A DNA stretch of 64,000 nucleotides from Psammoneis japonica (GCA_008632985.1 QPGO01000099.1:1-64000); one strand, 5' to 3'. Shown: positions 2,944 through 44,438, counted from the stretch's first letter. Made by a program: numbers and translations. Notes: generated by a model from the sequence alone, not told the origin.

Positions 2944-3030
2944 GATGCGCTCTAGCTCCAGGTGGGACCTCGCACTGCTGAACTGTGACATCAACAGTTT
3001 TTTGGATCACGCCGTGTGTCGCGCACGCAG
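2944..3030 (-). mobile_element. MITE family, partial copy (right end), TpA-converted
   Basis: Matches the reverse complement of 39900-39986, e.g. ctcgTAcTActgaac -> ctcgCAcTGctgaac. Confidence 0.8.
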
Positions 3031-5501
3031 ATGGGGAATTGCCAATGCATTGTTTTTTGTCGCAAGCGCCAGTGGATTGTCCCGTGTGAGAGTGTGGTGG
3101 TGTGCCTGCCTCCTCGGGCACTTTGGGATGTCAGGCAGTTGTGCCAATGACAGAGAAACCAAACGGCATCAGAGGGGATGCTGTGTTGCATCTGCATTCG
3201 GGGGAGCGGCGCCGCCATGGTGTCGCATCTCTTTGCATTTTCTTTCCCGATGTCAGCATGTTTTCTGCGTTAAATTCTACGCGATTCAGCAATTTTCCAA
3301 GTCAGTTCTTTCAGCACAAATTCCATGCACAATTCCACGCGTTTGGCCAGAATTTTGTCAGGTTCATGCTCTTTTGTTCTTCTCACCAACGTGCTTCCTT
3401 TGAGTTTTCTTTCCAATGCACTGCAATTCATGATGGATGTTCTGCGGTGTTCCAAAGTGGGTCGCCACAAGTCTTCCAGCTGGTCAGCATTTCCAAGTCT
3501 CGATATTGCTCCTCTTGCTCTTCGACACTGCAGCTTCAGCACACAATTTCTGTGCAATTCTGCGCATGACAGAAATTTCATCCGACAACTCCGATCATCA
3601 TTGCCTTTCCTTCGTTGGGGTCTGTGTTGGACTTTCTTGGGTGTTTTTCATCCCAGGAATTTCTCTCACATTCGCTTCAAGCACATCATCTTCGGAGATG
3701 GACACGTGTTTGGTTTTCTGCAGTGTTCATTTTGGTGTCTAACAAGTGGTGTGGCTGGGCTTGTCCATTCTTCGAGGCACAGCAACTGTGGTTGCCGTGT
3801 GACAAGCATCCGGTCAGTTGCTGTTCTGACTTAAAACAAACAGCCTCTTCATTGCCTTCGGACAATGTGTTGATGGCATTGTCTTTCTGACAATGTTTGA
3901 CAACAGCTCTTCAATTGTCCCTGCCGCCCTTTGTGGGTGCTGGGGAACGTGGGTCCACTGTGGTCGGTGTTGGTGTGGGCGGTGGCGAGGCAGCGGCAAA
4001 ATGGATTTCTAGTTTTGTTTGTTCATGTGTTGAGCACACATGTGACGAAGGGCAATTTGTGGCAATTCCCTGGGAACTCACTCTTTCCTTAGAAAAACAG
4101 GGCAAAAGGTGGCAATCCCGGGGAATTTTGTTCAAAAACACAGGCAAAACCAAACTAAGATGTCTGCACACGAAATCATGATTGTTGATTTAAAAGAGTC
4201 ATTTTTGCCAAGAAATTGGCGACAGTTTCAACAAAAAACTCTGAATTGACGGGAGGCAGAAAATGCCTGAGACGCTGTCGCAATGGACCACACAAGGACC
4301 GCCAAAGCTTGGCATGTCAGGACCGGCAGCATGAGCCAAGAGCCGGGCTCAATCTCTTTAAGAGGCTTTAAATGCCCGCATTTGTCATTTGTGCAAAAAT
4401 TTTGAGTGCTGTGGCTGTCACTTGATTGGAGTTGATTGTGCTTGGGGTTTGTGACAAAATCTGTTGAATGGACAGCCCGGTTTGAAATCCTTTTGAAAAG
4501 TTCCTTGGACAAATGAGTGCAGGAAGAACCAGTGGATCTTGCTGTGAAAATTCTCGCACAATTCTGCAATGCGTGAGAACCCAATGGTGCGCCGCATGGC
4601 TTGCATTTGTGACAAAGAACAAGTCCAACAATCTGTCAACACACCAGTTTTCTGAACGCAGTCTGTCAAGCTTCTGCTCATTTTACATTTTGTGCTGTCA
4701 ATCACAATGTTGTTCACCAGTTTGACTGGTGTCATCATTGTTTGACAAAAGCCGTCATAAATGGGATGCAAGCGCTCCATGGCGTGTTGCCTGTTTTTGT
4801 TGCATTGCTCAATTGATGATGATTTGCACATCTGATGTGTGGTTCCACACTTGCTGGCATGCAGAACACGCACAAATGCATGAGAGGGGAAGCATGGGGA
4901 ATTGCCAATGCATTGTTTTTTATTCGTGTGTTGAGCACACATGTGACGAAGGGCAACTTGTGGCAATTCCCTGGGAACTCACCCTTTCCTTAGAAAAACA
5001 GGGTAGAAGGTGGCAATCCCATGGAATTTTGTTCAAAAACATGGCAAAACCAAACTAAGATGCGCTCCATGTTCTTGAAGACTTTTGTTCTGCACTTGAC
5101 CTTCATTGAGGTGGATTTGGCTTGAAGTGTGCAGGAGATCACATGTCAATGTGTTGGCCAAACAGTGCATTCCGGAATTTCCCAAGTGTTTCCACCATGG
5201 ACAGAAGCTCTTTTTCCATTGTGACGTGAACGCCAAAAATCAGGCATGATGGTGGTGCAGTTTTTGACATGATGCATTCCATGTTTTTGGAGACTTTTGT
5301 TCCGCACTTGACCTTCATTGAGGTGGATTTGGCTTGAAGTGTGCAGGAGATCATTGAGGCTGCATGTCTTGACATCAGTGACGTGTGTTGAGACAAGATC
5401 GGCGGGTCGGCAGGTCAGCAGGTTGGTGGGTCGGCAGGTCAGTGGGGTGCCCCATCCAATTTCTTCATTGCTGGATGCCGTGGCGATGCATTGCTGTGGC
5501 T

Positions 5502-5958
5502 GACGGGTTCCAGTCCTGGGCGGGACTTTTTGTGACATTGGGCCCACAGAATTCTGCGTGCGAGCTCCGTGTTGCGAGAATCTGATCAATGGACATTGCA
5601 ATTGTGGCCATTGCCGCTTGACATTTTTGGCAATCCACCTGCCCTGCGCCATTCTCAAGACATTTGCAAATCCAATCAATGGACATTGTGTCTTCAACAT
5701 CAAACAAACAACCAAGTTTGTGGCACAATTGTGGCCATTGCCGCTTGACATTTTTGGCAATCTGCCTGCCCTGCGCCATTCTCAAGACATTTGCAAATGG
5801 CGCAGAAGCAAAAAATGTCAAAAGTTGTTGGATGGATCGCTCAACAAGTGTGCCACAAAATGACACAAAATTTCAGAAAAGTCACGCACCTTTCTACGTG
5901 TGCGACATGCGGTGCAAACCAAAAAACTGTCACGTCACAGTTCAGCAGCACAAGGTCC
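5502..5958 (+). mobile_element. MITE family, degenerate copy with internal duplication
   Basis: Begins gacgggttccagtcct and is colinear with 39597-39965. About 1 TA remains. Confidence 0.8.
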
Positions 5959-8900
5959 AACCTGCTGACCCACCAACCCACCGACCCGCCGACCCACCGA
6001 CCCACCAACCCACTGACTTGCCGACCCACCAACTCGGGGGTCGGCGGGTCGGTGGGGCGCCCCATCCAATTTCTTCATTGCTGGATGCCATGGCGAAACA
6101 TCCCTGAGAGAGAAGCAAAGTTCTTGATGTGGGCATTAAAAGCCTTTTAAAGAGACTGAGCCCGGCTCTCAGCTCATGCTGCCGGTCCTGACATGCCAAG
6201 CTTTGGCGGTCCTTTTGGTGTCCATTGCAACAGCATCTCAGGAATTTTCTGCCTCCCGTCAATTCAGAGTTTTTTGTTGAAACTGTCACCAATTGTTTGG
6301 CAAAAATGACTCTTTTAAATCAACAATCAAGATTGCATGTGCAGACATGGAAACACAATCTCTGTGTGTCATTTGTGCAACAATTTTGAGTGCTGTGGCT
6401 GTCACTTGATTGGAGTTAATTGTGCTTGGGGTTTGTGGGTTGGGGTTGGGGTTGGGGTTTGATGGGTCAGTGGGTCAGCGGGTTAGCAGGTCAGTGGGTC
6501 AGTTGTTCGGCGGGTCGGCGGGTCGGCAGGTCGGCGGGTCGGCAGGTCGGTGAGTCGGCGGGTCGGTGGGTCGGCGGGTCAACAGGTCGGCGGGGCACCC
6601 CATCCAATTTCTTCATTGCGGGATGCCGTGGCGATGCATTGCTGTGGCTGTCACTTGACTGGAGTTAATTGTGCTTGGGGTTTGTGGGGTTGGGGTTGGG
6701 GTTTGGTGGGTCAGCGGGTTGCTGTGGCTGTCACTTGATTTGAGTCAATTTTGCTTGGGGTTTGTGGGGTCGGCGGGGCGCCCCATCCAATTTCTTCATT
6801 GCTGGATGCCNNNNNNNNNNNNNNNNNNNNNNNNNNNNNNNNNNNNNNNNNNNNNNNNNNNNNNNNNNNNNNNNNNNNNNNNNNNNNNNNNNNNNNNNNN
6901 NNNNNNNNNNNNNNNNNNNNNNNNNNNNNNNNNNNNNNNNNNNNNNNNNNNNNNNNNNNNNNNNNNNNNNNNNNNNNNNNNNNNNNNNNNNNNNNNNNNN
7001 NNNNNNNNNNNNNNNNNNNNNNNNNNNNNNNNNNNNNNNNNNNNNNNNNNNNNNNNNNNNNNNNNNNNNNNNNNNNNNNNNNNNNNNNNNNNNNNNNNNN
7101 NNNNNNNNNNNNNNNNNNNNNNNNNNNNNNNNNNNNNNNNNNNNNNNNNNNNNNNNNNNNNNNNNNNNNNNNNNNNNNNNNNNNNNNNNNNNNNNNNNNN
7201 NNNNNTTCTGTCCATGGTGGAAACACTTGGGAAATTCCGGGGTGCACTGTTTGGCCAACACATTGACATGTGCGCGGTTCACAAGACACAACAAACACAG
7301 TCATGGGTGGGCAAATTGATGCAGCACACAACCAGGGCATGGTGAACGTTGTTGCAGAAGCATTCAGCCAACTTGCTGTGAAGAAAATTGAGCCTTTTGA
7401 AACCCTGCAACAATGTCCTGCCTTTAAAACAAGACAATGACATTTCCTCCAAATTGCCAGACGCAACACATCTTGCCAAAACTTTTTGTGGAGGCAAGCA
7501 AGATCAAAAAGTGATCATGTCACAAGGACAAAATTGTCTTGTCTGAAGACCCTTTGAAAAAATTGGTGACAGATTGGCGCACAATGCGCGCCCACTTCAC
7601 ACTGGAAAAAAGACAGTCTTGCAACACCCGTGCAGCTGCAGTGCAAAATGTGCAAGGCAAGACACAAACAAACAATGTCACTCTCAAAAGACATTTGGAA
7701 ATTGGAGCAGCCCTGTGTGGCCCACACAAAACAACAACAGTCATTGCCGGCGGCACAATGCAGCCAAATGTGGAGACAACATTGATGCTGTCAATGTCTG
7801 TTGAACAACTCAACTTGACAAATGACTCCAATGTTCAATTGGGGAGGCAATTGACAGACAATGTTGCCATTTCATGCATCAATGCCAGTGGTGTTTGGAC
7901 TGTCTGTTGTCATGACCACATTCTCCAAAAGGCCTTTTGTCTGCGGAAGCAATGCAGAAGCTTCAGGCCATTGAGGGCTCATTCCGGGAAACAAAAAATC
8001 ACAGAGCAAAATTTAATCTCACATTTTCCACTTTTTGCAATTTGTTTTGCTTTTCTTTGTGCTCATTCTTTGAGCACAGTGCGCCAGAGCAGATGTTTGA
8101 AAGGTTCCTTTGCACTGAGCAATGTTTTGACGTGTCCCAGAGAAAGAGATGGGTGTTGAGCTCAGGATGCCTTGCAAAGTGCAATGTGTTTTTGCCAAGG
8201 CCTGCAAAACACCAAAAACCAGTTGGGGGAGGCCATTTTGTGAAAGAGTGCGTCCAGGACAGTGAAAACAAGTTTTGGTTTTTTCCCACCTTTTTTGAAG
8301 GAGAAAGGGTGACTTTGCAGTGNNNNNNNNNNNNNNNNNNNNNNNNNNNNNNNNNNNNNNNNNNNNNNNNNNNNNNNNNNNNNNNNNNNNNNNNNNNNNN
8401 NNNNNNNNNNNNNNNNNNNNNNNNNNNNNNNNNNNNNNNNNNNNNNNNNNNNNNNNNNNNNNNNNNNNNNNNNNNNNNNNNNNNNNNNNNNNNNNNNNNN
8501 NNNNNNNNNNNNNNNNNNNNNNNNNNNNNNNNNNNNNNNNNNNNNNNNNNNNNNNNNNNNNNNNNNNNNNNNNNNNNNNNNNNNNNNNNNNNNNNNNNNN
8601 NNNNNNNNNNNNNNNNNNNNNNNNNNNNNNNNNNNNNNNNNNNNNNNNNNNNNNNNNNNNNNNNNNNNNNNNNNNNNNNNNNNNNNNNNNNNNNNNNNNN
8701 NNNNNNNNNNNNNNNCAGAAATGAAGCTGGCTGGCACAGATGAAGACCACAGCAAGGCAAAAAGGACACTTCAGAGAGGATCTGACAAGTGCAAAACAAA
8801 AGAAGAGCAGCCGTTGGCTTCAAGGGTGGCATTGTTTTGCAAATGCAATCGACGGACAATGCTGGCATCTCGCGCATCAATGCCAATGCACTTGGACTGT

Positions 8901-9517
8901 CTGTTGTCACGACCATGTTCCCTTGTGAGCCTTTTGACTGTGGAAGCAGCGCAGAAGCTTCAGGCCACTGAGAACTCATTCAGAGAAACCAAAAATCAAA
9001 GAGCAAATTTCAATCTTGTGATTTAAAATTGTGGTGCTTTGCTCTGCTTTTGTTTGCACTTGTTCTTTGAGCACAGTGCATTGCACACACACACCACAGA
9101 AGGTGAAATGGTGCTGAACTTGTTGGTGCCATTGGGTCTTGTCATTCAGTGCACAACATGCGTGGTCACAGCCACAACTTGTGGCAGCAACTGTGTTCTT
9201 CCCAGGACCAGCTGGCGACAAATTGACTGTCACAGCAGAGTTTGCGTTCAGTGCTGTGAAAGCTGTTGTTGGCAAGCAAGCTGTGGCTCAAGAAGGCCTT
9301 GAGGGAATGGAGCAAAGAGGCAGAACACACGGTCAGTCATTCAGTTGGCAGGTTGGCGGGTTGGCTGGTCGGCTGGTTGGCTGGTCGGCTGGTTGGCTGG
9401 TTGGTTGGTTGGTTGGTCGGTGGGTTGGTTGGTTGGTTGGTTGGTTGGTTGGTCAGTTGGTTGGCGATGAAGGTTCAGCCACTTTGATCACTTCCAAGGC
9501 TCAAAAAAGGTTCAGAG

Positions 9518-9884
9518 GATGCGCTCTGCTCTGGACGGGACCTTGCACTGCTGAACTGTGACATCAACATTTTTTTGGATGATTGTGCTGTGTGTTGTGC
9601 ACATGCATTTCCATGTGACTTTGGTGGAATTGTGCATCATTTTGTGGTGAAATTGCTGGGTGATCCATTCAACAGTTTTTGGCATTTTTTTCTTCTGCGT
9701 CATTTGCAAATGCATTGAGAATGGCGCAGGGCAGGCAGATTGCCAAAAAACTTTGAGTGTGGACAGCCACAAATGCACTTGAAGATGAAAATGTCCATCA
9801 ATGAAATTCTTGCACTGCAGAGCTCGCACATGGAATTCTGCGGGCCGAGTGTCACAAAACATCCCACCAGGACTGGAACCCGTC
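9518..9884 (-). mobile_element. MITE family, degenerate full-length copy (left arm)
   Basis: Both termini are recognisable. Mirror of 23815-24182. Confidence 0.75.
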
Positions 9885-12800
9885 ACTGACAAGGACAATC
9901 AGGGCATGGGATGGAAGGGACTTCAGCGCTGACCCACCGACCGACGCATTCCAGACGCAGGTTGGAATCCGTGTGACATTGGGCCTGTAGAATTCTGCGT
10001 GCGAGCTCCGCAGTAAAATCATTGGGTGATGAAAATGTCAATGATCGCCAACAGAAAATGAGGCAGTTTTGCGAACGCACAAACTCGTCCATGATTGAAG
10101 AACATCATTCATTGCTTGGCTGGGCACATTCTTCAGACATTGAAGAATGCAACTGGTGCATTGTTGTTTTTATAAATTTGTCATGTAAAACGTCTGGGGC
10201 TTTGCAAAACAGCGAGTCTGGACAATTTTTTTGAAATGTCACACGCAGAAATGCACGCGCGAAACATGCGACGGATGACAAAAATTGTTTGTGTCACACG
10301 TCAGTGCTGCGAGCTCCCACCTGGGGCTGCAATGCGTGACCCACTGACCCGCCGACCCACCGACCGCCGACCTTCTGACCTGCCGACCCGCCAACCCACC
10401 AACCTGCCAGCCCGCCGACCCACCGACACGCCAACCAAGCAACCAACCCACCAACCAGCCAGCCAGCCAACCAACCAACCAACCAACCAACCAACCAGCC
10501 AACCAACCAACCAACCAAGAGACATGACTCATTGTCCAGCAATGAAGAAATGAGATGGGGCTCAGCAATTGCCCCATGAAGAATGTCAGTGAACTCTTCG
10601 ACACCAACATTTTCCAGCTGAGTGCCAATCACATTGAAAATGTGGCGCTGTGAATGGAGTCAACAACAGGACCAGCGGCCCTTGGATCACATTGTTGCTC
10701 CATTGAATCCAATCAAGTGACAGCCACAGCAATGCATCCAAACCAAAATGATGCAACCCACTCAATCTTCTTCTTGACAGGTTTGAAATCCTTTTGAAAA
10801 GTTCCTTGGACAAATGAGTGTGGGAAGAACCAGTGGATCTCACCGTGAAAATTCTGATGCAATTCTACAATGCGTGAGAACCCTCTCCCATCACAGGCTT
10901 TGGCAGCATCCATTTGAAAGAAAATTTTCCAATTGCAAAAGATTGAAGTCCAAAACATTGGAATTTGTGTGAATCCATGCTTTTGGTGGTGAAAAACCGT
11001 TCGTAAGTCAGAGACCGCGCAAAAATCTCTCAAATGTCGTTTTTGTGCACAATTTGGGTCATGTGCGGCTGGAACACGTCAGTGGGTTGGTCATTCAGTG
11101 GGTTGGCGGGTTGGTGGGTCAGTTGGTTGGCAGGTTGGCGGGGCGGCGGGTCGGCGGGTCGGCAGGTTGGCAGGTCGGCGGGTTGGCGGGTCGGCAGCTG
11201 GGCAGGTCGGTGGGTCGGTGGGCAACCAACAAGCCGACCAGCCAACCAACCAACCAACCAGCCAACCCGCCAACTGAATGACTGGCTTGCTGGCTGAATG
11301 TGAGACATTGCATTTTGTTTCCAGCTGCAATGTTCTCTCAAGGCAAGCCCAAATTGACCGTGTGTTCTGTCTCTTTGCTCCGTTCCCTTGAGGCCTTCTT
11401 GAGCTTCAGCTCACCTGCCAACAACAGCTTTCACAGCACTGGACGCAAACTCAGCTGTGAAAGTCAATTTGTCACCAGCTGGCCCTGGGAAGACCACAGT
11501 TGTTGCAGCAAGTTGTGGCTGTGATCACGCATGTTGTGCACTGAATGACAAAACCCAATGGCAACCAACAAGTTCAGCACCATTTCACCTTCTGTGGTGT
11601 GTGTGCACAATGCAATGTGCTCATTTTTGGCAAAAACACATTGCACTTTGCAAGGCATCCTGAACTCAACATCAATCTGTTTCTCTGGGGTGCATCAAAA
11701 CATCACTCAGTGCAAAGGAACCTTTCAAACACCTGCTGTGGTGCACTTTGCTCAAAGAACAAGCGCAAAGGAAACCAGAGCAAAGTGCAAAAAGTGGAAA
11801 ATGTGAGAACAAACATTGGAGTCATTTGTCAAGTTGAGTTGTTCAACAGACATTGACAGCATCAATGTTGTCTCCTCGTTGACTGCATTGTGCCGCTGGC
11901 AATGACTGTTGTTGTTTTGTGTGGGCCACACAGGGCCGCTCCAATTTCCAAATGTCTTTTGAGAGCGACATTGCTTGTTTGTGTCTTGCCTTGCAGATTT
12001 TACACTGCAACTGCGCGGGTGTTGCAAGACTTTCTTTTTTTTCAGTGTGAAGTGGGCACGCATTGTGCCAATCTGTCACCAATTTTTCAAAGTGTCTTCA
12101 GACAAGACAATTTTGTCCTTGTGACATGAGCACTTTTTGATCTTGCTCGTCTCCACGAAAAGTGTTGGCAAGATGTGTTGCATCTGGCAATTTGCAGGAA
12201 ATGTCATTGTCTTGTTTCAACTCTTTGTTTGCCACAGCGACATGCGCGAATTTTTTTTTGCGTGCGTTGAAACGGGGCCACCATCAACAACACAACAAAT
12301 GGAACGTCGCGGTTCCGAGTCATTGCAACAGACAGCACCCCAATGCCATGCGGGGTGATCGTCAACATGGCAAGTTGTGTTCTGACAGCTTGGTTTGGTT
12401 TGTTGTTGCCTTGGCGTTGTTTTTTCACGTCGCATCTTACCTGCTGTCGCATCGGCATTTCTTGCATCACGACAGGCACGACCGACCGACATTGACAGAA
12501 ATGGTGTTGTTGTTTTTGGCATCCTGCTGGCAGAATCTGGTGGAACAGCAAACAAATCGGCAAGAATGTGACACAGTGCTGTTGTTCTGTTGCATCAGAG
12601 TGTCCTTTTTCCCATTCGACATTCCCTCAGCTTGCCCTTGCTCTTTTTGCTGCTGTTTTTTTCCTTTTCAGTGCGAGACAACCGTCTTTTGCGGTGTTGG
12701 CAACATGAGCGTCGGCAATGTCATGGACACAATGGACATCTCCATGCTTGCGTTCAGCTCCGATGATTTGTCCATGGAGGACGCTGATTTGGAGTCCGGC

Positions 12801-12904
12801 ATTGCTCCCTTGGCCTCTGACCTGCTGAACCACCTGATGACGTGCCGGTGCCAGCTCGGAGAGTGCCTGGTCAAACAAATTCTGTGGCCCATGATGGTTG
12901 GATT

Positions 12905-13309
12905 GCAGGACGATGTGTGCTTTTTCATGTTGATGTGGAGCATGGAGGGAAGAAGTGTGGCACGCTGCAGCTCTCAGCTGTTGCAGCAGATCCAAATGAC
13001 AAGTCTGCACTCGGCAAATTTGACGAGCACATCAAGCCTCCAGAAGGAACCAAGTGGACCAACGAGATGGAGAGGGCCTCCCAGGAGTCGCACAAACTCA
13101 AGCTCACTGATCCCCGCATGGCCAATGCTGACAAAATGGAATTGGTTTGGCCAAGATTTTGCAAGTTTGTAGAAGACAAGTTGGATGTGGGCTCCAAGGT
13201 TGGGATTCTGGCGGCATGGGGAGGCAAGGGAGGTGATTGCGAGTGCATGTTTTGTCTTGCTGAAGACACCCATCGCAAAACCTTGTCTGTGCTGCAAGGG
13301 CTGAAGCAC
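12905..13309 (+). pseudogene. Truncated DEDDh-type 3'-5' exonuclease domain (probably from a DNA transposon ORF), cut by the Copia junction
   Basis: Translation FHVDVEHGGKKCGTLQLSAV...FDEHIKPP...VWPRF...ILAAWGGKGGD resembles the ExoI (D-x-E) and ExoII motifs. It ends abruptly at 13309. Confidence 0.55.
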
Positions 13310-14419: not shown

Positions 14420-14683
14420 GCCAGCAGGAAAACAGAGTCATGTGAGAAATCATAAATTCAAAAGGATGTCTCAGTTTGTGTTGACGACAACACACAGCCA
14501 TCAGAAGCATGGAGACTGGCCATGTCTCCTCACTGCTCGTGCATTCACTGATGCCAGGTGATGACAATCATCGTGCACCCTTCGATCGACCAGCATTCGT
14601 CGTCATGACCCTGCCACAATGGTGCGACCATCTCTTTGCAGTTGTTCAATGCTTTTTGTCAAACCAAACTTGAGTCAACGACT

Positions 14684-14695: not shown

Positions 14696-14697
14696 AG

Positions 14698-33900: not shown

Positions 33901-36268
33901 TCCGCCATCTGCCATCCACCATCCAGCTTCTGCCATCCACCATCCAGCATCCAGCATCTGCCATCCACCATTCACCATTCGCCATCCACCATTCACCATC
34001 TGCCATCCGCCATCTGCCATCCGCCATCCGCCATCCACCATCCACCATTCAGCACCCGCCACCCGCCATCCACCATCCAGCATCTGCCATCCACCATTTG
34101 CCATTCGTCATCCACCGTTCACCATCCAGCATCTGACATCCACCATCCGCCATTTGTCATTCGTCATTTGCCATCCACCATCAACCATCCGCCATCCGCC
34201 ATTCAGCATTTGCCATCCGCCATCCACCATCCGCTGTCCAGCATCTGCCACCCACCATTCACCATTTGCCATCCACCACTCACCATCCATCATCTGCCAT
34301 CCACCATCCGCCATTGACCATCCACCATCTGCCATCCACCATCCGCCATCCGCCATCCGCCATCCGCCATCCGCCATCCGCCATCCACCATCTGATGTCC
34401 ACCATCCGACATTCGCCATTCACCATTGGCCATCTGCCATCCGCCATTCGCCACCCGCCATCTGCCATCCACCATCCACAGTCCACCATCCGCCGTCCAA
34501 CATCCACCTTCCGCCGTCCACCATCCACAATTCAGCAATTGACGCCCGCCATCCACCATCCAGCATCTGCCATCCACCACTCACCATTCACCATCCACCA
34601 TTCACCATTCACCATCTGCAATCCACCATCCGCCATCCACCATGCAGCATCTGCCATCCACCATTCACCATTCGCCATTCACCATCCGCCATTTGCCATC
34701 CACCATCCGCCATTCACCATTCACCATTCACCATCCACCATCTGCCATCAGCCACCCACCATCCACCATCCGCCATCTGCTGTCCACCATCCACCATTCA
34801 GCATCCGCCATCCGCTGTCCACCATCCACCATCCAGCATCTGCCATCCGCCATTCGCCATTCGCCATCCGCCATCCAGCATCTGCCATCCACAATTCGCC
34901 ATTCGTCATCCACCATTCACCATCTGCCATCTGCCATCCGCCATCCGCCATCCGCCATCCGCCATCCACCATCCGCCATCTGCCATCCACCATCCACCAT
35001 CTGCCATCCGCCATCCACCACCCAACATCCACCATCCACCATCCGCCATCCACCATCCAACATCCACCATTCAGAATTTTCCATCCGCCATCCACCATCC
35101 ACCATCCAGCATCTGCCATCCACCATTCATCATCCACCATTCACCATCCACCATCCACCATTCACCATCCACCATCCACCATTCACCATCCGCCATCCGC
35201 CATCCGCCATCCACCATCCACCATCCACCATCCACCATCCGCCATGCACCATCCGCCATCCGCCATCCACCATCCACCATCCGCCATCCAATGTCCGTCA
35301 TCCGCCATCTGCCATCCGCCATCCAGCATCCACCATCCACCATTCAGCATTTGCCATCCGCCATCCACCATCCACCATCCAGCATCTGCCATCCACCATT
35401 TGCCATTTGCCATCCACCGTTCACCATGCAGCATCTGCCGTCCACCATTCCCCATTCGCCATCCGCCATTTGCCATCCACCATCCACCATCCAGCATCTG
35501 CCATCCGCCATCTGCCATCCACCATCCACCATTCAGCATCCGCCATCCGCCATCCACCATCCACCATCCAGCATCTTCCATCCAACACTCGCCATTCGTC
35601 ATCCGCCGTTCACCATCCAGCATCTGCCATCCACCATTCACCATTCACCATTCGCTGTTCACCATCCACCATCCGCAATCCACCATCCGCCATCCGCCAT
35701 CCGCCATCCACCATCTGCCATCCACCATCCACCATCCGCCATCCACCATCCACCATCCACCATCCACCATCCACCACCCAGCATCCGCCATCTGCCATCC
35801 ACCATCCGCCATCCACCATCCACCATCCAGCTTCTGCCACCCACCATCCAGCATCCAGCATCTGCCATCCACCATTCACCATTCGCCATCCACCATTCAC
35901 CATCTGCCATCTGCCATCTGCCATCTGCCATCTGCCATCCACCATCCATCATCCACCATCCAGCATCTGCCATCCACCATTCACCATTCACCATCCGCCA
36001 TCCACCATCCACCATCCGCCATCTGCCATCCACCATCCACCATTCAGCATCCACCATCCACCATCCACCATCAACCATCCAGCATCTGCCATCCACTGTT
36101 CACCATTCGCCATCCAGCATCTGCCATCCACAATTCACCATTTGTCATCCACCATTCACCATCTGCCATCCGCCATCCACCATCCGCCATCTGCCATCCA
36201 CCATCCACCATCCGCCATCCGCCATCCGCCATCAAGCATCCACCATCCAGCATCCATCACCCGCCATC
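30930..36268. repeat. Degenerate 7-bp satellite (CCATYYR), block 2, with higher-order duplications
   Basis: ~5.3 kb of the same heptamer. Rare marker variants recur (acaattcagcaattgacg at ~31594, 32280, 34527; cagaattttcc at ~32587, 33042, 35072). Confidence 0.97.
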
Positions 36269-36926
36269 TGTGTCACTTCCCTCCGTGCAACAACTGAACT
36301 CCGGTGCACATCCGATTCACACACCATTTAAGTTTGTTGCAACTTGAACCACCAGCTCTCACTTTGCCATTTGGGGCAATGGTCCAGGCATTCTTTGCAC
36401 TGAAATTTGTGTCATCTCTTTGTGAAATGATTGTTGCATGTGATTGTGCATCCTTTGTTCAGTGAAAGTGAATGGCATGCATTGCTGCACTTTTTTTTTT
36501 AATGTCACAGAAACAGAATGGCAAATTTTAATGTTTCTCAGCCATGCAAAGATTGGATTTCTACAGATTGTTGATGGAACTCATTGCACTGTCGCCAAAA
36601 CAGAGTTGCCATTTTGGCTCTGTTTCAGTTCATTTGTGATGCATTTCTTTGCACCACAACAAAACCAGGTTGCCAATTTTTTTGCATGTTCGTTTTTCAT
36701 TAATTTGGACCGCAGCGTTACAACAATGTTGCACATCAACACACAACTGTTTTCCCTCCTCTTTGTTGCCCCATTGTGCTCTCTCCTGTCGGCTTCATCT
36801 ACTCCCACATCCCATGTTGTCTTCATGCTCCAATGTTTGCTTAGCGTCTTGTGTCTCTCCCCTTCCGGCAGGGCTTGATTGCAAAAACAACAAACTCTCT
36901 CGGCAACGGGTGCATTTCCAACCCGG

Positions 36927-39073
36927 TCAGTGCGTCAGCAAGAGGACGTTGACATGCAAGAAGGTCTCTTCCATTGGACTGTTGACTCTGAATGAACCCA
37001 TGCAATTGCATTGGAAATGAGCTGTCCATTCCATGTCGGGATGGCAACGAAGGCAGAGCATGCTGCGTCCCTCCTCGGTCTGACCCATCAGGGCAATCGC
37101 AAACAGCTTCCCCATCTTTTGGTCACAGGTCAAACCAGACAAGGTGCAAAAACCGTTGCGCAGCACAACAGGAAGAAAGTCAGATCTCTGACCAGGTCTG
37201 CACCACTGAGATCCAAAAATGTGGTTGGCCAAATCGTTGAGTCTGCCTTTGGCAGAGTCGGGAAGATCGTTGATGAGGACAGATGGCGTCTGAGGGACTG
37301 TGCCACCTTGAACAATGTGCATTGCATTGGGTGACGCAAAACCAAACACACCCTGAGGATTGTCTGCCATCCGCAGGGGAAAGAAAGCATTGTCAACTGT
37401 GTGTTGGCCAAACACCTTGTGAAGCATGGTGGAGCAAACGTTCATGTGCCTGACAACGGCACTGCATGCCTTTGAACGGACAGATTGGGCTTTGGACTTG
37501 GACATCACTGTGTCCATTTGTGATTCAACAAACAGATGCCATGGGCTTTTGGTGGATCCAGGGGGTGGTCCCAGAGCTGCAACGGTTGGACGCTCCATCA
37601 ATTCCTGAGAAAAGAGCTGCAACGTCCAGGAAGTGAGACAAGAATGACCAATGCGACATGCATTTTTGCGTCCTGAAACACGGCCGGTTGCTTGAGCAGC
37701 ATCAACAGCATTGCCCAACAAAGTTACGTTGTGTGCAATCATGCATTTGAAACACTGCTGATCTCCCAGTTGGACTCGGCAGACAGGAGGAGATTCTTTT
37801 GCTTGAATTGCAGACACAAGAAGGACAGATGCAATGCAATGGTAATTTCTGACGTTCATCCCAAATGCGGGATTCTTTGTTTTGTAACCTGTGCATTTCG
37901 GAACAAGTCCAAGAGGGCGCCATGCTCCAAAACAATGGCAGGCCAATGCATTGACAAGAGTTACAGAGAACACACCTGGCTCTGTTGAATGAGGTGCGAC
38001 CTGTCCTTTCCCAGTTTTGTCTGTGTGGTGCGGTGCAAACACATGAAAGGAACCTGACACGACAGGAACGTGACCGCCACGCAAAAAGTTGCAACAGGTT
38101 TCTCCATCCTTCATTTTGGCTTTGTTGCAAAGTTTCCAGTCACCATTCTTGTCAAGCAAGGGAGCGCTGGATGGCTCCTGAGACCAACGTGAATCAGGGT
38201 TCATGTCTAGATGGAAGTTGTCTGCAAAAAATCCTGCAGTTGAAGGGAAAAGTTGCACACGGGGACACCGGGAGAAATCTCCTGGGGTGGGTCATTTTTG
38301 AATTGGTTGATGATGGACACGGACTCAAGTTGGACTTGCTTCAGCACAGGAGCAACAACGCTGGGCAACATCAGCTTGAGCTTCAACATGAAAGTTTGAG
38401 AAGAGGGAATTTGTCGGACAACAGACAACCCACCACTCGAGAATTCCTCTTGCACAGTTCTGAGAAGTTCGTCGGTTGCACTGATTGGGACACCCTTGGA
38501 GTGGCACAGATTCAACATGCAGACCATGGAAATGGTTTTGCTGCTGCAAACTTTGGGCACGAGGAGGTCCTTGTTGGTGGAAAGGCGGCCCACTTGATCC
38601 AGTGCAGCTGATGAGCCTGATGTGGCAACCTCGGTGGCGGCACCCGGGGTGTCAAAAGCGGATGCACCATCATGAAATTGATCAGGAACAAATTCTTCAT
38701 TGTCAGGGAACTGAGTGTCTGAAACATCATCAGGTTGGGGCACAATGGTGTGGGAAACACGCAACTCCAGAGCATGTGAAACGGCACAATTGGAGCGCAA
38801 TGGCCTGTGATTGAGTCCAGTGTAACCTTGTGGAGTTGGCCCAGTGTTGGCATTGGACCCGGTTGCAACAAATTGAATGGGAGGAGAGCCGAGAGCAGAT
38901 GAGGCAGCAACATCCCCCTGGTCTTCGGATTCTGCCATTGCCGGGTGTCTGCCATGAGCATCGTCTGACTGTTGGGAGGAAACGTTTGCCACAAACGGGA
39001 CAATCATTTCCAACAATGGAGGGGGGCACCATTGTTCATTTTCTTGAAAGAATGTTGAGATGAGAATGTGCAA
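36927..39073 (-). pseudogene. Decayed Plavaka-like transposase
   Basis: Motif order HTDKTG..TEPGVFSVTL..WRPLGLVP..RNYH..LLGNAVDAAQATGR..R..HSC..VDNAFF..ASPNAMHIVQGG resembles the diatom Plavaka-type proteins I recall. Frameshift near 38230; nearly Tyr-free. Confidence 0.55.
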
Positions 39074-39596
39074 AAACGGTGCATGGCAGGTGACAAGATT
39101 GTGTTGGATGAGTCAACTCATGTGTCAGCATGCAACATTGTGCCTTGATTTAACGCACAACATCGGTTCTCTGAACGCCAGCACACGGTGCTTGCATCAA
39201 ACAATTGACAATGTAAGCCAAATCCGACTGTCCGCGGTGACAGAAATTTTGCCATGCTGGCACGCATCTCAGATTGTTGCCCTCCCAGATGACACACAAA
39301 ATGACATTCCATTTTGAACACAAATTACATGTCTCTTGTGTGTGAAGCATGTGAATGTAAAATGCTCAGGCAGAAGGGATTTCATGGGTGTTTGGACCAT
39401 GGGGACATGCAAACGGGACATGCATCATAAACTCCCTCTGTGGACTCAGTGCTGGTTGCACGACAGCACAGTGGTTGCAGATTTGCAGAAAGATTGTTTA
39501 ATTTGACATTCAAATGATGGCAACATTTTTGCCAAAAATCATCCATTGTGTTGTGATTCATTCATCACAATGAAAAACATGGACAGCACAAAAACA

Positions 39597-39986
39597 GACG
39601 GGTTCCAGTCCTAGGTGGGACTCCGTGTGACATTGGGCCCGTAGAATTCTACGTGCGAGCTCCGTAGTACGAGAATTTAATTAACGGATATATTTATCTT
39701 CAACATCAAATAAACGGCCAAGTTTGTGGTACAATTATGCCTCTTGCCACTCGACATTTTTGCAAATACGCCCGCCCTACGCGATTCTTAAGACATCATA
39801 GAATCGCGCTGTAACAAAAAATGTCAAAAGTTGTTGGACGGATCGCTCAATGAGTGTACCACAAAATGATACAAAATTTCACAAAAGTCTCGTACAATTC
39901 AGCGTGCGCGACATACGGTGCGATCCAAAAAACTATCGATGTCACAGTTCAGTAGTACGAGGTCCCACCTAGAGCTGGAACGCGTC
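39597..39986 (+). mobile_element. Intact ~390 bp MITE-like element with imperfect ~30 bp TIRs and candidate 4-bp TSD (aaca)
   Basis: Left end gacgggttccagtcctaggtgggactccgt; reverse complement of right end gacgcgttccagctctaggtgggacctcgt. aaca at 39593-39596 and 39987-39990. Non-coding, with at least five other copies in the window. Confidence 0.85.
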
Positions 39987-41104
39987 AACAATGACATTGC
40001 AACACTGACGCAAGTCTTGTCAGTGTTGCAAAACATTCAATTTTGGACAAATCTGTGCTTTTGGTGGTGAAAGCTCACTTTTGTGCACGACTTGGGTCAC
40101 GTGCTGCTGGAACATGTCTTTTCATGGTTGCTGTTTGCAGGTGCTGGAAATGTCCATTGATGACGTGCGGTCATGGGTTCAATCAATGTGGTCATTTTGA
40201 GCAACACAGACAGGCAGCCTTTAAAAGGAAAGTTTTTTAGAATGATTTTTCTCCTTTGTTGATGAATGTCTTTCATGCAATGTCCACCAGCCTTGTGACA
40301 TGGATGCCTTTTTTGTGTGTCAAAGGATTTCAGGCATGATGCACTGCTTGCAGTCTTTGCGTCTTTTGCAGCTGTCACTGCCGCAGACCCTCCCCGTGCC
40401 CAATGTGGGTTGACAGAGACACTGCCGGGCAGAGAAACTCCAGTGCAATCATGTTGACCGCTTTGTGAATTGTGTCAGACCAGAGACACATTGGCTTTCG
40501 ATTGCATGACACTGACAATTCTGACATCAGGCAGCACAGCAAGTTTAAAGTTGCAAATTTGGAGGGAGATGAGGAGTCAGACCCAGATGACAAATTGGCG
40601 CCAAAATGCTGGTGGCACTGCAGCACCAGTGCAATGCTGGGATGGCGGGGAACAAGTGTCATTTGTTCATTGCATTTAAAATCACTTTTGTGGGTAAAAT
40701 GGTCTCCAAATGCCTTCATGGGTTGGACAAACATGCACGTCATTCTTGAATGAGTTGGAAATGAATTTAGAAATCACAGTCATGCAGAGAAAAACAACAA
40801 AGAGTGGCAAAATTGGTGAAAAGATCACATGTTCACAGTTGTGGTTGTTTGCAAATTACACTGCAGTCAAAGAAAGGGAGTCGCCGGTTAGAGCATCAGG
40901 TGTTTGGTGTTGAAAGAGAGGTTTGAAATTTTGCCCCACAATTCACAACAGAAACAGAGGCAGTGGCAAGGGAGAAGAAAAAACAGAGTGGGGAGGTGGC
41001 TGGAGATCAACCAACCAGCCCAAGGCTGGCTGTGGCATTGATGTGGGCAGGAGCCAGCAGAGATTGCCAGCCCACAAAGAGAGAGGCAGAAGAGGTGGCA
41101 TGTG

Positions 41105-43790
41105 GAGAGAGGAGCTGTCCCCAACAGCAAAGTTCCTTGTCAAAGTGGACATGGCAAGCAGTGGGAAAGTGCCACAGCTCATGTGGAAAAAGACAGCCGG
41201 TGGCAATTTCAGCAAGTGAGGCTGGGCAGGATTGTGGCAAGACTGGGCAAAGAAGTGTGCCATGAACGCAAATGATGCAAAAAGGAACACCGCCACACAA
41301 ACAACACAGAAGAGTGCAATGGCTGGCAAGTGTTTTGTGATGAATGGCATGTTGAGTGTGGCGACACTTGCCATGACCCTTCTTTGGTGCAGTTGTTTTG
41401 ACAGAGCAGCAAGCCAAGGAATTGTGCTGTCAGAAAAGAGAGCTGTTGCAAAAAATCAAAGAGGGGAAGGAAAAAGAAGAAGGCTTGATCAGCTGATGAA
41501 GAAATGTTCTTGGTGACTTGGGAGGATGAGGCAGTGGACACCATTGTGGGGGAGAAGCAAAGGAACAAGGAGGCATGTGCACAGTTCTGCAACAATGTCC
41601 TTAAAATCATGAAGAGTGCTGCGGCATGGAGAAAGAAAGCCGGGGTTGGGTGAGACCAAAGCTCCAGATCCAACTGCGGCAAGCTGCAAGGCTCTGGGGC
41701 TGTGGCACAAGGCCCTTCATGACAGTGCTGTTGGAGGGGGAGCAGACACTGGGGAGAAGGAGGAGGAGGAGGAGTTGAAACCAGCACCCAAGTGCATGGA
41801 CCCAACATGACAGCATGACTCATGGGATGATGCGGGAATGTTGTGATTCAACACCCTGCTTGTGCAAGTGAAGGAGGACAATGGTGCAGTGGCAGAAAGA
41901 AGAGGAGGGAAAGCAATGAAAAGGGCAAGGGAGCAAAGAAGAAGATGCCAGTGGAGAAAAAACAGGCAACAACAGGGCTTTTGAGTGACAATGAGGAGGA
42001 CAAGGAAACAGAAAAGGACAAGCGCAACAGGACAGTGAACAAGAGGAAAAAAGGAAGTGAAGATGGAAGCAACGACAAAGAAGAGGCAGAAAAGGAGCAT
42101 GCTCTGGTGCAAAAAGGGAGTGGAGCCTTTTGTCAATGTGAGAATGAAAAACAGCAAAGCAGTGCATTGGTGTTCATTGAAAACAATTTTAAACCAGGCA
42201 TGCAAAAATTCAGCATTCATTGAAAGACGTTTCATGCTGTTGTTTGACAAACAACTGGTGATGTGCATTCCACAAAACCAATCAAATGTGTTTGTTGGTG
42301 CAAATTGGTCTCATCATAAGGCTTTTCAATGTTGCAATGAAGAGGTAAAAAAGGCAGGCACTCTGAAGGGGAAACAGGTGGAATTTTCAAAGTCAAAGGT
42401 TTTGTCTCATGGGACACGGTGGGTGGCCACGGAGAGAGCTGTTCCCAAAGGCAAAGTTCCTTGTCAAAGTGGACATGGCAAGCAGTGGCAAAGTGTCTCT
42501 TGGCTCATTCAGAAAAAGACAGCTGGTGGCAATTTCAGCAAGCAAGACTTGGCAGGATCATGGGAAGACTGGGCAAAGAAGAAGTGCATCATGAGTGCAG
42601 TCAACAGAAGAACACAATGGCTGGCACAAGTGTTTTGTGATGCATGGCATGTCAATTGTGGCAATGCTCAACACTGCCCTTCTTTGGTGAAGTCGTGATG
42701 ACAGAGCAGCAAGCTGAGGAATTGCACGGGGTCAGAAGAAACCCGCCACCAAAAAATGAGGGGACAAGAGAAAGAAGAAGGATCAAGTGGCAGATGAAGA
42801 GCCACTCCTGGCAACTTGGGAGGAGCAGACAGTGAGCACAATTGTGAAGTGGAAGAGTGGCAACAAGGAAGCATGTGCGTGGTTCTACGACAACATCCTA
42901 AAATTCACAAAGAGTGCTGTGGCATGGAGAAAGGGCAAAAGGAGTCAGGAGAGACCAAGGCTCCAGACCTGAGTGCAGCAAGCACCGAGGTTCTGGGGCT
43001 GTTGAAATTGGAAAACTGCTGGAATGATTGGGGGCACAAGGCCAAACATGAGAAGACTGTTGGAGGGGGGGGGGGGGGGGACTCAGGGGACAAGGAGGAG
43101 GAGGAGTCAAAACCAGCACCCAAGCACATGATCCCAACACAACAGCACAACTCACGGAATGACAAAGGAGTGTTGCAATCAATGCCTTGCTTGCAAAAGT
43201 GAAGGAAGCCAGGGCAAGTTAGGAAGGTGTGCAGTTCGACACATGGCACAGCAACAGCAAGAAGAGGGAGAGCAACAAAAGGGGCAGGGGAGCAAAAAGG
43301 AAGAAATTGCCGGTGGAGAAGAAGGCAAGAAAACAGGCAACAATGATGGACCTTTCCAGTGACAGCAAGGTGGACGAGGAAGGGGTGGTGGACAAGAACA
43401 GGAACAACAAGGACAGAGAAGATGAGGAAGAAGGAAGCAAAGGTGGAGGCAACAATGAAGAAGAGGCAGAAAATGGGCAAACTCTGGTGCAAAGAGGGAG
43501 CAGAGCAAGTTGTCAATGCAAGAGTGGAGCACGGCAAAGCAATGCACCAATGTTCATTGAAAACAATTGTGAACTGGGAATGCAGCAATTTGGTGGTCAT
43601 TGAGAGATGTTCATCATCCCATTGATTGACAATGAACCTGTTTGTTGTCACAGATTTTAAACCCCATGAACCTGTTTGTTGGCACAAATTGGTTTTGTCG
43701 AAAAGTTTTTTAATGTCGCAGTAAAAAGGCAACAAAGGCAGGCACTCTGAAGGGGGAACAGAGGTTGCATCCATGAGATCCAAAAAGGAG
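41105..43790 (+). repeat. Tandem ~1.3-1.4 kb duplication of a decayed, probably transposon-associated coding relic
   Basis: gcaaagttccttgtcaaagtggacatggcaagcagtgg at ~41128 and ~42451; aaggcaggcactctgaagggg at ~42351 and ~43735. Residual peptide WFYDNILK..AWRK..STEVLGLLKLENCWNDW. Confidence 0.75.
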
Positions 43791-44438
43791 ATGTACCAGT
43801 GAATGGACCCGGAATTGACTTTGTCAAAAGACCACTGAAAATGTCTCACCTCACACTGTCTGATCCGCCTGTCTCTGAACAAAAAGCAAACCCCACGTGG
43901 CACTGTCGCATCATTTTCACGAAGAATAATTTGATGTGAATCTTAAGAACCGTAATTCTGCTGTACATAGACGCTTCGTTGATTCCTTATCGTCTGTCTT
44001 GGCTGTGCTATGGCAATGGTGTGTTTCTATTGTCCGCGCGTTCATCGTGTTATATAATTGTGCAGGACATGAAACAGAATGAATTCTAATCCTTTCTACT
44101 CTATCCTTAGCCGCCAAAAACTGAACTTCTATTTTATTGGTGTTGAAATGAGTGGAGTGGCAACGCAGTTTTACCAATCTGTCGAGCCAGCCAAATGGCT
44201 GATCAGCAGTGATTATCCAACCCTGCTAGATAGGAGCAGCTAGGAATATTTTCCATGGCGGACCAAACGTGGCAATGGTAAACGGTGTTCTTCTCATGCT
44301 CGGTGGCCTATGGTGCGTGGGTCTTTCATCGTATCGAATCTATCGGATCTTTGCCGTTGTACCGCACACGATTCACCTTGACAATCACACTATGGACAGT
44401 ATATGCATTCATCATTGGAGCTTTTCATTTTCAGCAAA

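Follow-up and report, generated by a model that had tools for sequence, protein, structure and literature searches.

Evidence for directed conversion of TpA to TpG and CpA in repeat-rich DNA of the diatom Psammoneis japonica

A directed process has probably turned the A:T pair of TpA dinucleotides into G:C, close to saturation, in repeat-rich and presumably silenced blocks of a Psammoneis japonica scaffold, and its catalyst may be a deaminase. The window analysed here is a stretch of 64,000 nucleotides (GCA_008632985.1, QPGO01000099.1, positions 1-64,000) in which a retrotransposon, DNA-transposon relics and the remnant of a cellular-type gene have all been targeted. The change runs from TA to TG or CA, is specific to TpA, affects both strands and strikes each site once.

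Results

TA is nearly absent from the repeats and common in the adjoining genes. Pooled repeat DNA (38,815 bp, excluding the satellite and a young MITE) holds 176 TA, or 4.5 per kb, at an observed/expected ratio (o/e) of 0.07, against 596 TA in 13,353 bp of genic DNA (44.6 per kb, o/e 0.61), while both TG (o/e 1.60 vs 1.19) and CA (1.68 vs 1.17) are in excess. Expressed per kb, repeat minus genic DNA amounts to -40 for TA, -24 for CG and +58 for TG and CA together, and the GC content of the depleted DNA is up, not down (0.492 vs 0.461). Counts per kb range from 0 to 12 over nearly all of positions 3,001-39,000, the exception being 30,001-31,000 with 17, and from 26 to 64 in 44,001-53,000. A sequence-only reading had described rare TA over some 41 kb of repeats beside genes with normal usage, which these windowed counts bear out; the span that it gave, 2,944-43,920, is depleted, but two further depleted segments (1-596 and 52,600-60,900) lie outside it.

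The main depleted domain (2,700-43,800) shows a TA o/e of ~0.0-0.17 per 2 kb together with the TG/CA excess. The second (52,600-60,900), defined on its TA profile, has normal CpG at 52.6-56 kb and very low CpG at 56-61 kb, and the small patch at the left edge of the window (4 TA in 596 bp) has related copies at 4,160-4,381 and 6,034-6,401. Boundaries at ~2,700, 43,700-43,900, 52,600 and 60,900 are each sharp to ~200 bp, and the loss is locally confined to the repeat blocks, adjoining genes having a TA o/e of ~0.6. Between the two domains lies a TA-normal gene island (43,900-52,600) with a family-C GPCR-like gene (44,439-47,252, minus strand; 7tm_3 and ANF_receptor) and a repeat-containing ORF (51,141-52,496). 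A second region of normal TA profile (61,000-64,000) contains a D-lactate dehydrogenase ORF (61,844-63,307, plus strand) whose named closest homologues are all from diatoms.

Independently built short-read contigs of DNA run X1 reproduce both the TA-poor sequence and its normal flanks. They carry the depleted sequence rather than TA, with 0 differences from the window over 41,313-41,747, and only one of the 16 differences listed within 36.5-44.1 kb restores a TA. Since this run may come from the assembly's own sample, the agreement excludes an assembly artefact and not a strain-specific oddity.

The direction of change can be read from MITE copies of different ages. A TA-rich island within the main domain (39,597-39,986, plus strand) is a young, unmutated MITE of 390 bp that contains 26 TA and has terminal inverted repeats of 30 nt; X1 contigs exist that exactly lack it. 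The summed k-mer depth of this copy in run X1 is 50,000-100,000, compared to ~55 for single-copy DNA, and from the high depth of its words the family of ~2,000 copies appears to be mostly unmutated. With this high-copy form as reference, three independent old copies were examined: 5,490-5,975 (plus strand; 26 TA sites, 0 kept, 12 TG, 10 CA), the partial copy 26,895-27,165 (plus strand; 19 sites, 0 kept, 7 TG, 9 CA) and 9,520-9,895 (minus strand; 24 sites, 0 kept, 9 TG, 10 CA). The mirror duplicate of the last at 23,805-24,195 (plus strand), a product of the inverted duplication discussed below, was left uncounted. None of the 69 TA sites was kept, 28 having become TG, 29 CA and 12 something else; none ended as CG, as expected if the first mutation destroys the TpA target. 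A>G changes affected 28/69 A in TpA and 16/245 other A, and T>C changes 29/70 T in TpA and 19/188 other T. At 15 of the 26 sites the old copies carry TG and CA at the same position, which requires an ancestral TA.

The same excess is found in a Copia contig from a marine metagenome (L024) compared with five family members. Here A>G reached 51/100 at TpA (51%) vs 39/834 at other A (4.7%), T>C reached 25/98 (26%) vs 42/594 at other T (7.1%), and the ~100 TpA sites show 76 transitions vs 8 transversions. As A>G exceeds T>C two to one in this contig, strand symmetry may be imperfect. Polarised in this way, the MITE, Copia and metagenome comparisons uphold the proposal of the sequence-only reading that A:T>G:C transitions are targeted to TpA on both strands in repeat domains, the MITE copies and L024 showing the A>G/T>C excess at TpA.

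Within the window, the consequences for coding sequence are clearest in a Copia-like gag-pol remnant (15,341-19,549, plus strand), which is collinear with a 1,368-aa polyprotein and carries frameshifts and one TAA/TAG stop. Aligned with 34 full-length homologues, its 20 Tyr-consensus columns hold 8 Cys, 6 His, 3 Tyr and 3 other residues, while W is kept at 13/13 and G at 38/40; with 68 homologues, 12 such columns hold C 7, H 3, F 1 and Y 1. The peptides NACL, PHGLKSSG, HEHVPVYVDD, CQELIG, DFC and SIACH, which had been taken for altered pol motifs, do lie in one frame (18,217-19,404), and homologues have Tyr or Leu at the positions concerned. The primer-binding-site-like word is also present, at 14,686, but belongs to the minus strand. 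Relatives are not equally TA-poor: at 80 related Copia loci the TA content is ordinary (o/e 0.29-0.94). Six of 150 reverse transcriptase homologue representatives from public data are nearly Tyr-free.

A cellular-type gene remnant with ELWxxDGT repeats and TSP3 (53,648-56,136, minus strand, two overlapping frames) has suffered likewise, with Tyr at 0.0% and 0.8% in the two frames vs 3.0% in homologues and motifs changed from LYF to LHF or LCF and from WVYD to WVHD. Other repeats are unclassified. Among 209 frames that are 90 aa or longer (2,879-31,872, 36,444-44,225 and 52,386-60,750), no transposon-family Pfam match was obtained at the thresholds used, so that no such match supports the earlier labels 'LINE' and 'Plavaka'; the sole transposon-family match in the depleted stretches is a weak one to RVT_2 (E 5e-4).

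The bases flanking TpA modulate its fate. Surviving TA are in the context YTAR in 90/176 cases in repeats vs 94/596 in genes, and in RTAY in 8/176 vs 213/596; TAY (that is, RTA on the other strand) is preferred and mutated first, and YTAR is relatively resistant. In L024, TA became TG at 22/34 sites followed by C and 23/42 followed by T, vs 2/6 followed by A and 1/8 followed by G, while the CA outcome amounts to 20-33% for all four 5' bases, with no rise for purines. The strand skew between TG and CA is below 0.09 in nine of nine segments. AA (o/e 1.30 vs 1.17 genic) and TT (1.32 vs 1.13) are not depleted.

CpG decay forms a separate, patchy layer in some segments, whereas the loss of TA is uniform and independent of it: CG o/e is 0.13-0.6 in parts, CpG is also low at 40-44 kb, and both 12-20 kb and 52.6-56 kb have a CG o/e of 0.7-1.0. 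The arms of an inverted duplication (7,206-14,921 mirrored by 19,736-26,353; 93.5% identity over 4.3 kb) differ at 204 positions, of which 70 are CpG-type, 12 TA-type and ~21 CA/TG doublets; with the differences mostly CpG-type and few TA-type, much of the TA loss must be older than the duplication. Two (CCATCCA)n satellite arrays, of 119 copies at 28,630-29,462 and 762 copies at 30,937-36,268 (0 TA in 5.3 kb), had been counted among the TA-poor repeats; their unit lacks TA by construction, hence they are uninformative. In the larger array, the variants CCATCCG and CCATCTG suggest decay of CpG.

Discussion

TpA>TpG/CpA hypermutation has been reported in integrated giant-virus and virophage DNA of Bigelowiella natans, whose mutation-accumulation lines show de novo changes of this kind ~1000-fold above background (Mettrop et al., bioRxiv 10.64898/2026.01.13.699255). 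As the preprint describes it, that process resembles the present one in its near-exclusive A:T>G:C change at TpA only, giving TG or CA by strand, in its restriction to foreign or repeat DNA beside a normal genome, with a deficit of TpA and a surplus of CpA+TpG over the long term, in its apparently episodic course, and in the enrichment of TE-type domains among TA-poor genes. The host differs (a diatom, thus a stramenopile, vs a chlorarachniophyte, a rhizarian), as do the depth of the footprint (o/e 0.07 over tens of kb here vs, in the preprint, a Rho of 0.45 for the giant-virus insert and of 0.43 as the cluster cut-off) and the targets, which are viral inserts in B. natans and, here, a Copia element, relics of MITEs, unclassified repeats and what is left of a cellular-type gene. 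The TAY/RTA preference is visible here, whereas the main text of the preprint gives no flank preference; conversely, de novo events are described from the B. natans lines, while the present case is known from its footprint alone. A literature search for reports of TpA hypermutation in diatoms found none, in line with the earlier supposition of novelty, which nevertheless has to be narrowed: the signature has been known since 2026 in one unrelated alga, and the diatom case is apparently new.

Fungal RIP, which is triggered by sequence duplication in the sexual cycle and needs a RID-type methyltransferase homologue, offers a second comparison. RID/Masc1-dependent RIP likewise produces dinucleotide-specific transitions on both strands, sharply confined to repeats next to normal genes, leaves repeats riddled with missense changes and apparently serves to disable mobile DNA. 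However, its C:G>T:A changes fall mainly on CpA and give rise to TpA, whereas here TpA is destroyed, CpA and TpG are created and GC content rises; with its direction reversed, RIP is rejected as the process. Decay of 5-methylcytosine at CpG also feeds TG and CA, and constitutes the second layer described above, but it cannot remove TA nor account for the 40 TA lost per kb, and its patchiness contrasts with the uniform TA loss; it is rejected as the cause.

We propose that the A:T pair of 5'-TpA-3' is converted to G:C on either strand, yielding TG or CA, with DNA rather than RNA as the likely substrate. Our leading candidate for the catalyst, a guess prompted by a similar motif (T at -1 and a pyrimidine at +1), would be a TadA/ADAT2-type nucleic-acid adenine deaminase of the HxE...PCxxC fold acting on DNA; its product, inosine, would be taken for G. 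A modified adenine that decays may be an alternative source. Edited mRNA adenines lie in UACG in bacteria and, in fungi, follow U and precede A or G (PMC10027721). TadA and ADAT2-ADAT3 target an A after T/U, and as far as these contexts are described TAY comes nearer to the bacterial TadA motif UAC than to the fungal or ADAR ones; these enzymes, however, act on RNA loops, and the heritable change seen here spans tens of kb of duplex genomic DNA and affects both of its strands.

Since TpA is palindromic, sequence alone is blind to whether the A or its paired T is attacked, and a changed A in TAY is the same base pair as a changed T in RTA. All results would thus fit equally well with a modification of the T of 5'-RTA-3', for instance its oxidation to 5hmU or beyond by a TET/JBP-type enzyme, followed by mispairing or faulty repair that puts C in its place. 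We regard this as unlikely, though worth keeping in view: 5hmU:A pairs are not known as strong mutagens, and nothing in the window points to a TET/JBP gene. The preprint on B. natans favours adenine deamination, by candidate homology only (bioRxiv 10.64898/2026.01.13.699255). Hyper-editing of repeat transcripts by an ADAR- or ADAT-like enzyme, with A-to-I changes then written into the genome through reverse transcription, would agree with the U at -1 favoured by ADARs and by fungal and bacterial editing, as described for these systems (bioRxiv 10.64898/2026.01.13.699255; PMC10027721), and the Copia element does have an RNA stage. Yet the MITE relics and the cellular-type gene remnant, mutated as fully as Copia, argue against it, as do the changes to either strand of the coding region of Copia (Tyr>Cys 8, Tyr>His 6), where such editing would confine A>G to a retroelement's sense strand, the extension of the depletion across non-coding flanks to sharp domain edges, and a 3' preference for pyrimidine instead of G; editing of this kind is very improbable.

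Still less credence goes to a TA-poor state native to the repeat families, maintained for instance by selection to escape nucleases that target TA or insertions specific to it, and not acquired after insertion. The trait is common to many unrelated repeats and the few nearly Tyr-free reverse transcriptases in public data would suit such an origin, but a polymerase that carries frameshifts and lacks 17 of 20 conserved Tyr would probably not function, the related Copia loci and the high-copy MITE form retain their TA, and the old MITE copies differ between TG and CA at more than half of the sites. Error-prone synthesis at WA by a Y-family polymerase during heterochromatin repair, which the sequence-only reading had entertained, is to be rated just as low. 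In the somatic hypermutation of vertebrates, Pol eta does cause A>G changes in WA motifs; here, the undepleted AA argues against it, as does the undepleted TT, and A>G outside TpA is infrequent both in the MITE copies (16/245) and in L024 (39/834). A sequencing or assembly artefact, which might be suspected in a scaffold interrupted by five runs of N, has a negligible probability given the matching X1 contigs, the single difference that restores TA and the same signature in an unrelated metagenome contig.

The directed conversion of TpA in DNA that we favour would be aimed by chromatin state or repeat status, and repeat homology or small RNA may also act as the trigger; a MITE family of high copy number that appears to be mostly unmutated is a misfit with a process triggered purely by copy number. 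As a recently inserted MITE sits untouched within the domain, the process would be slow or episodic. Speaking of genome defence means reading a function from where the mutations lie; so read, the process in this diatom would serve to disable mobile DNA, much as fungal RIP does but with reversed chemistry.

Extent of TA depletion

The TA-poor domain described in a sequence-only reading of this DNA is real and has sharp borders. Repeat DNA pooled without the satellite and without one young MITE insertion holds 176 TA in 38,815 bp (4.5/kb; observed/expected [o/e] 0.07), versus 596 in 13,353 bp of genic DNA (44.6/kb; o/e 0.61). In 2-kb windows, TA o/e was 0.00-0.17 at 4-38 kb and 0.02-0.04 at 54-60 kb, versus 0.6-0.8 in the gene-bearing parts, while counts per kilobase were 0-12 across nearly the whole repeat block (17 in 30,001-31,000) and 26-64 at 44-53 kb. 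The edges, at about 2.7, 43.7-43.9, 52.6 and 60.9 kb, are each sharp to about 200 bp. Two depleted stretches lie beyond the domain first described, at 52,600-60,900 and in the first 596 bp of the window. TG and CA are enriched in repeat DNA (o/e 1.60 and 1.68, versus 1.19 and 1.17 in genic DNA), where AA and TT show no depletion; expressed as change per kb relative to genic DNA, repeat DNA has 40 fewer TA, 24 fewer CG and 58 more TG plus CA.

TGA is the only stop codon left in the depleted domain, and because TAA and TAG are gone, all six frames contain long false ORFs. Frames of at least 150 aa number 91 in the window, one of them spanning 1,573 aa at 31,610-36,328 (+). Gene callers would here predict Tyr-free proteins that escape Pfam. 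Pfam scans covered 215 frames that run from stop to stop and are 90 aa or longer, 209 of them in the depleted 2,879-31,872, 36,444-44,225 and 52,386-60,750. None of these 209 frames matched a transposon family, and no family of transposases, LINEs or integrases turned up in the scans; the labels "LINE" and "Plavaka", which had been attached to some of the repeats, thus find no Pfam match behind them.

Read support

A public DNA run (X1) contains 0.86 of the words sampled from 38,001-47,900, and its independently built short-read contigs match depleted sequence and normal flank alike. One contig over 41,313-41,747 shows 0 differences to the window and another, spanning the domain edge at 43,292-45,962, shows 7. 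By reproducing the TA-poor sequence, these contigs rule out an assembly artefact; a strain peculiarity would still be compatible with them, since X1 and the assembly may come from one and the same sample. Among 40 listed of the 211 differences between the window and X1, 16 fall inside 36.5-44.1 kb; of these, one brings a TA back and another takes one away. These differences are a mix of paralogues and alleles and no demonstration of ongoing mutation.

Direction of change in a MITE family

A MITE of 390 bp at 39,597-39,986, bounded by 30-nt terminal inverted repeats, contains 26 TA and forms a TA-rich island. Its words reach a summed depth of 50,000-100,000 in X1 versus about 55 for single-copy sequence (roughly 1,000-2,000x), and this young copy therefore stands for the bulk of a family of about 2,000 copies. 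Some X1 contigs join 39,592 straight to 39,987, exactly without the element. The family looks very abundant and recently active. Three independent old copies are found in depleted DNA, at 5,490-5,975, 26,895-27,165 and 9,520-9,895 (-), while a fourth, the mirror duplicate of the copy at 9,520-9,895, was left out of the counts. At the 69 aligned TA sites of the young copy, the three old copies have TA at 0, TG at 28, CA at 29, CG at 0 and other dinucleotides at 12. Outside TpA, A>G was seen at 16 of 245 other A and T>C at 19 of 188 other T. Two or more old copies cover 26 of the sites, and at 15 of these one copy has TG and another CA, for which an ancestral TA is the sole parsimonious reading. 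Since no TA became CG, the first hit removes the target. The symmetry of the terminal repeats was dropped as a polarising argument, as a TG in one arm reads as CA in the opposite arm.

Loss of tyrosine codons in a Copia remnant

The Copia remnant at 15,341-19,549 (+) aligns collinearly with a polyprotein of 1,368 aa. The peptides previously quoted as examples of converted TA codons are all found in one frame, 18,217-19,404; the PBS-like word cited alongside them is present, but on the minus strand at 14,686. The reverse transcriptase (RT) matches Pfam RVT_2 with an E value of only 5e-4. An exhaustive profile search recovered 11,396 relatives. Among the 68 of the best 150 relatives with a local match of at least 400 residues, 12 columns carry Tyr in at least 60% of homologues; the window has Cys at 7, His at 3, Phe at 1 and Tyr at 1 of them, and its Tyr content is 0.8% versus 4.7% in these homologues. 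In the 34 of the best 150 relatives that exceed 1,200 aa, Tyr defines 20 columns, and the window has Cys at 8 of them, His at 6, Tyr at 3 and another residue at 3; Trp was retained at 13/13, Gly at 38/40 and Asn at 9/9. A polymerase that has lost most of its conserved Tyr is unlikely to be functional, and its TA-poor state is for that reason decay, not native composition. The relatives themselves could have been equally TA-poor, as the sequence-only reading had considered; this is not so in 80 related Copia loci from metagenomes, whose TA o/e ranges from 0.29 to 0.94 and is below 0.1 in none.

RT homologues nearly free of Tyr do occur, in 6 of 150 representatives plus one further relative. The public protein clusters P0160, P0183, P0190, P0235, P0244, P0260 and P0299 are Copia RT proteins with 0-0.9% Tyr and raised His and Cys, reading LCGLK or LHGLK for LYGLK and NAHL for NAYL. 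They resemble hypermutated copies that were annotated as genes. One of them, P0190, consists of a single Logan contig, which may even come from this organism.

An independent occurrence in a metagenome contig

The lowest TA o/e of the 80 Copia loci belongs to a copy on a metagenome contig (L024) with five family members at the DNA level (80-88% identity); ancestral states were taken from sites at which at least three of the five relatives agree. At TpA, A>G was found at 51 of 100 sites and T>C at 25 of 98, versus 39 of 834 other A and 42 of 594 other T elsewhere; C>T at CpG affected 10 of 195 sites, and the five relatives carry almost no private changes. The closest DNA match between the window and the metagenome Copia loci is 73% over 416 bp. 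Because the window and these loci have no close DNA in common, L024 is an independent occurrence of the signature. Three polarised tests (MITE, Copia, L024) thus uphold the core of what had been proposed, namely A:T>G:C change at TpA on both strands in repeats.

Strands and flanking bases

Both strands are used: in none of the nine segments does the TG/CA skew reach 0.09. Surviving TA of type YTAR (TTAA, TTAG, CTAA, CTAG) make up 90/176 in repeats versus 94/596 in genes, and those of type RTAY (ATAT, ATAC, GTAT, GTAC) 8/176 versus 213/596. In the MITE test, YTAY gave TG 10 times and CA 4 times, and RTAR gave CA 7 times and TG 3 times. In L024, TA became TG at 22/34 sites followed by C, 23/42 by T, 2/6 by A and 1/8 by G, and TA was kept at 5/9 YTAR versus 2/40 RTAY sites. 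A purine precedes five of the six Copia Tyr>His codons, and a pyrimidine precedes all three surviving Tyr codons. Consequently, the notation that suits the target best is 5'-TAY-3', equal to 5'-RTA-3' on the opposite strand. L024 agrees less well with this, as CA products were no more frequent there after a 5' purine and A>G was about twice as frequent as T>C; there may be some bias between the strands.

CpG decay, inverted duplication and satellite

CpG decay forms a layer of its own over the TA loss and is patchy, with a CG o/e of 0.13-0.26 at 40-44 and 56-60 kb but 0.7-1.0 at 12-20 and 52.6-56 kb. A large inverted duplication (7,206-14,921 versus 26,353-19,736; 93-99% identity) has the Copia remnant between its arms. 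The 204 differences between the arms comprise 70 of CpG type, 12 of TA type and about 21 CA/TG doublets; much of the TA loss is therefore older than the duplication. A two-state model of these differences was dropped, as CpG- and TpA-derived CA/TG doublets are inseparable without an outgroup. The 226-bp repeat beside Copia (14,696-14,921 versus 19,960-19,736) is inverted, whereas LTRs should be direct.

A (CCATCCA)n satellite with a 7-bp unit occupies about 6 kb (28,630-29,462 and 30,937-36,268). It had been counted among the depleted repeats, but its unit contains no TA and it is hence no evidence for TA loss. The satellite has a strong strand asymmetry (GC skew -0.7), and CCATCCG and CCATCTG are common variants, a pattern that suggests a decaying, CpG-containing ancestral unit.

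Genes within and outside the depleted blocks

Frames of a cellular-type ELWxxDGT-repeat/TSP3 protein remnant (53,648-56,136, -) lie inside a depleted block where CpG is normal. They contain 0.0% and 0.8% Tyr versus 3.0% in 120 homologues, and 6.6% and 3.8% His versus 1.2%. At the variable position of the motif G.L[Y/F]F.A, homologues have Tyr 279 times and Phe 207 times, while the eight matches in the window have H 4, F 2, C 1 and R 1. Hypermutation is therefore not limited to transposons. As its best named homologues are bacterial, the remnant may be a silenced member of a horizontally acquired gene family.

In the TA-normal parts, a D-lactate dehydrogenase ORF (61,844-63,307) has best named homologues solely from diatoms (Thalassiosira, Ditylum, Cylindrotheca, Mayamaea and Bacillariaceae; 58-64% identity), and its best unnamed match reaches 72% identity. 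These matches make a diatom outside the annotated proteomes the most likely source of the window, and exclude Bigelowiella natans. In an ORF at 51,141-52,496, a 108-bp unit is repeated five times in tandem at 51,254-51,807, the copies being 98% alike. A look-up of public runs listed no RNA run carrying the window sequence. Contigs of a run labelled "DNA?" (X2), which covers mainly the genes of the window, lack exactly 45,134-45,247 and 46,456-46,553 on 44,116-47,190 and are transcript-like despite that label; the two skipped segments suggest two short introns in a GPCR-like gene.

Mechanism and relation to known systems

The process is a TpA-specific, two-strand, one-hit A:T>G:C change; it is restricted to repeat blocks and affects sequences never passing through RNA. 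Its substrate would be DNA, its targeting would follow chromatin state or repeat status, and its outcome would be disabled mobile DNA. The pace would be slow or episodic, because the young MITE inside the domain is untouched and a large part of the TA loss is older than the inverted duplication.

To our knowledge, directed hypermutation of repeats is textbook matter only for fungi (RIP, C>T) and for animal APOBEC/ADAR. Fungal RIP follows a similar logic with the opposite chemistry, C>T in place of the A:T>G:C seen here. Error-prone synthesis by a Pol-eta-like enzyme, an option raised in the sequence-only reading, is disfavoured, as AA and TT are not depleted. All known A-to-I editors have T at -1 in common with the TpA target; the contexts of ADAR are unlike the pyrimidine found here at +1. 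In the review PMC10027721, the UACG context of bacterial TadA resembles this pyrimidine, whereas fungal A-to-I editing has A or G at +1. Thymine-directed chemistry may operate instead of an attack on adenine; TpA being palindromic, the sequence alone fits it too. Our leading guess, to which we give about an even chance once the process is accepted, is a TadA/ADAT2-type adenine deaminase working on DNA.

Exactly this signature has appeared as de novo mutations in a single rhizarian alga, B. natans. According to the accessible text of a preprint (bioRxiv 10.64898/2026.01.13.699255), 231 of 302 nuclear mutations in mutation-accumulation lines fell in integrated giant-virus and virophage regions, 230 of these 231 being A>G or T>C, all at TpA and in some lines only; the authors count 124 TA-poor clusters in the genome and put forward an ADAT2 homologue as the candidate. 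That main text does not contain the word "diatom", and no flank preference was found in it. In full-text literature, including terms within the accessible part of PMC2806351 and with most subscription journals outside its coverage, we found no diatom report of TpA hypermutation and no diatom description of TA-dinucleotide depletion with A-to-G changes in transposable elements. The novelty is thus smaller than initially supposed: the signature was first reported in 2026, and the diatom case adds another lineage to that phenomenon, in which the footprint is much deeper.

We tentatively propose, with less confidence than in the deaminase itself, that diatoms, and perhaps the SAR supergroup more widely, possess a RIP-like defence by enzymatic adenine deamination at 5'-TAY-3' in genomic DNA, which would target silenced repeats together with invading DNA and leave hardly any TpA intact. 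If true, the enzyme is a natural DNA adenine deaminase and its footprint, Tyr-free and stop-poor pseudo-ORFs, could allow the system to be mapped throughout eukaryotes and its gene to be traced by presence/absence. Comparative genomics of lineages with and without the footprint is a route to such an enzyme, and a natural DNA adenine deaminase with a defined motif would interest base-editing work. In hypermutated repeats, the loss of TAA/TAG stops and of all Tyr produces long false ORFs that distort both gene and transposon annotation. Given that the signature occurs at saturation in a diatom and again in an unrelated contig from a marine metagenome, many marine protists may share the process, and it may shape transposon control in diatom genomes beside cytosine methylation.
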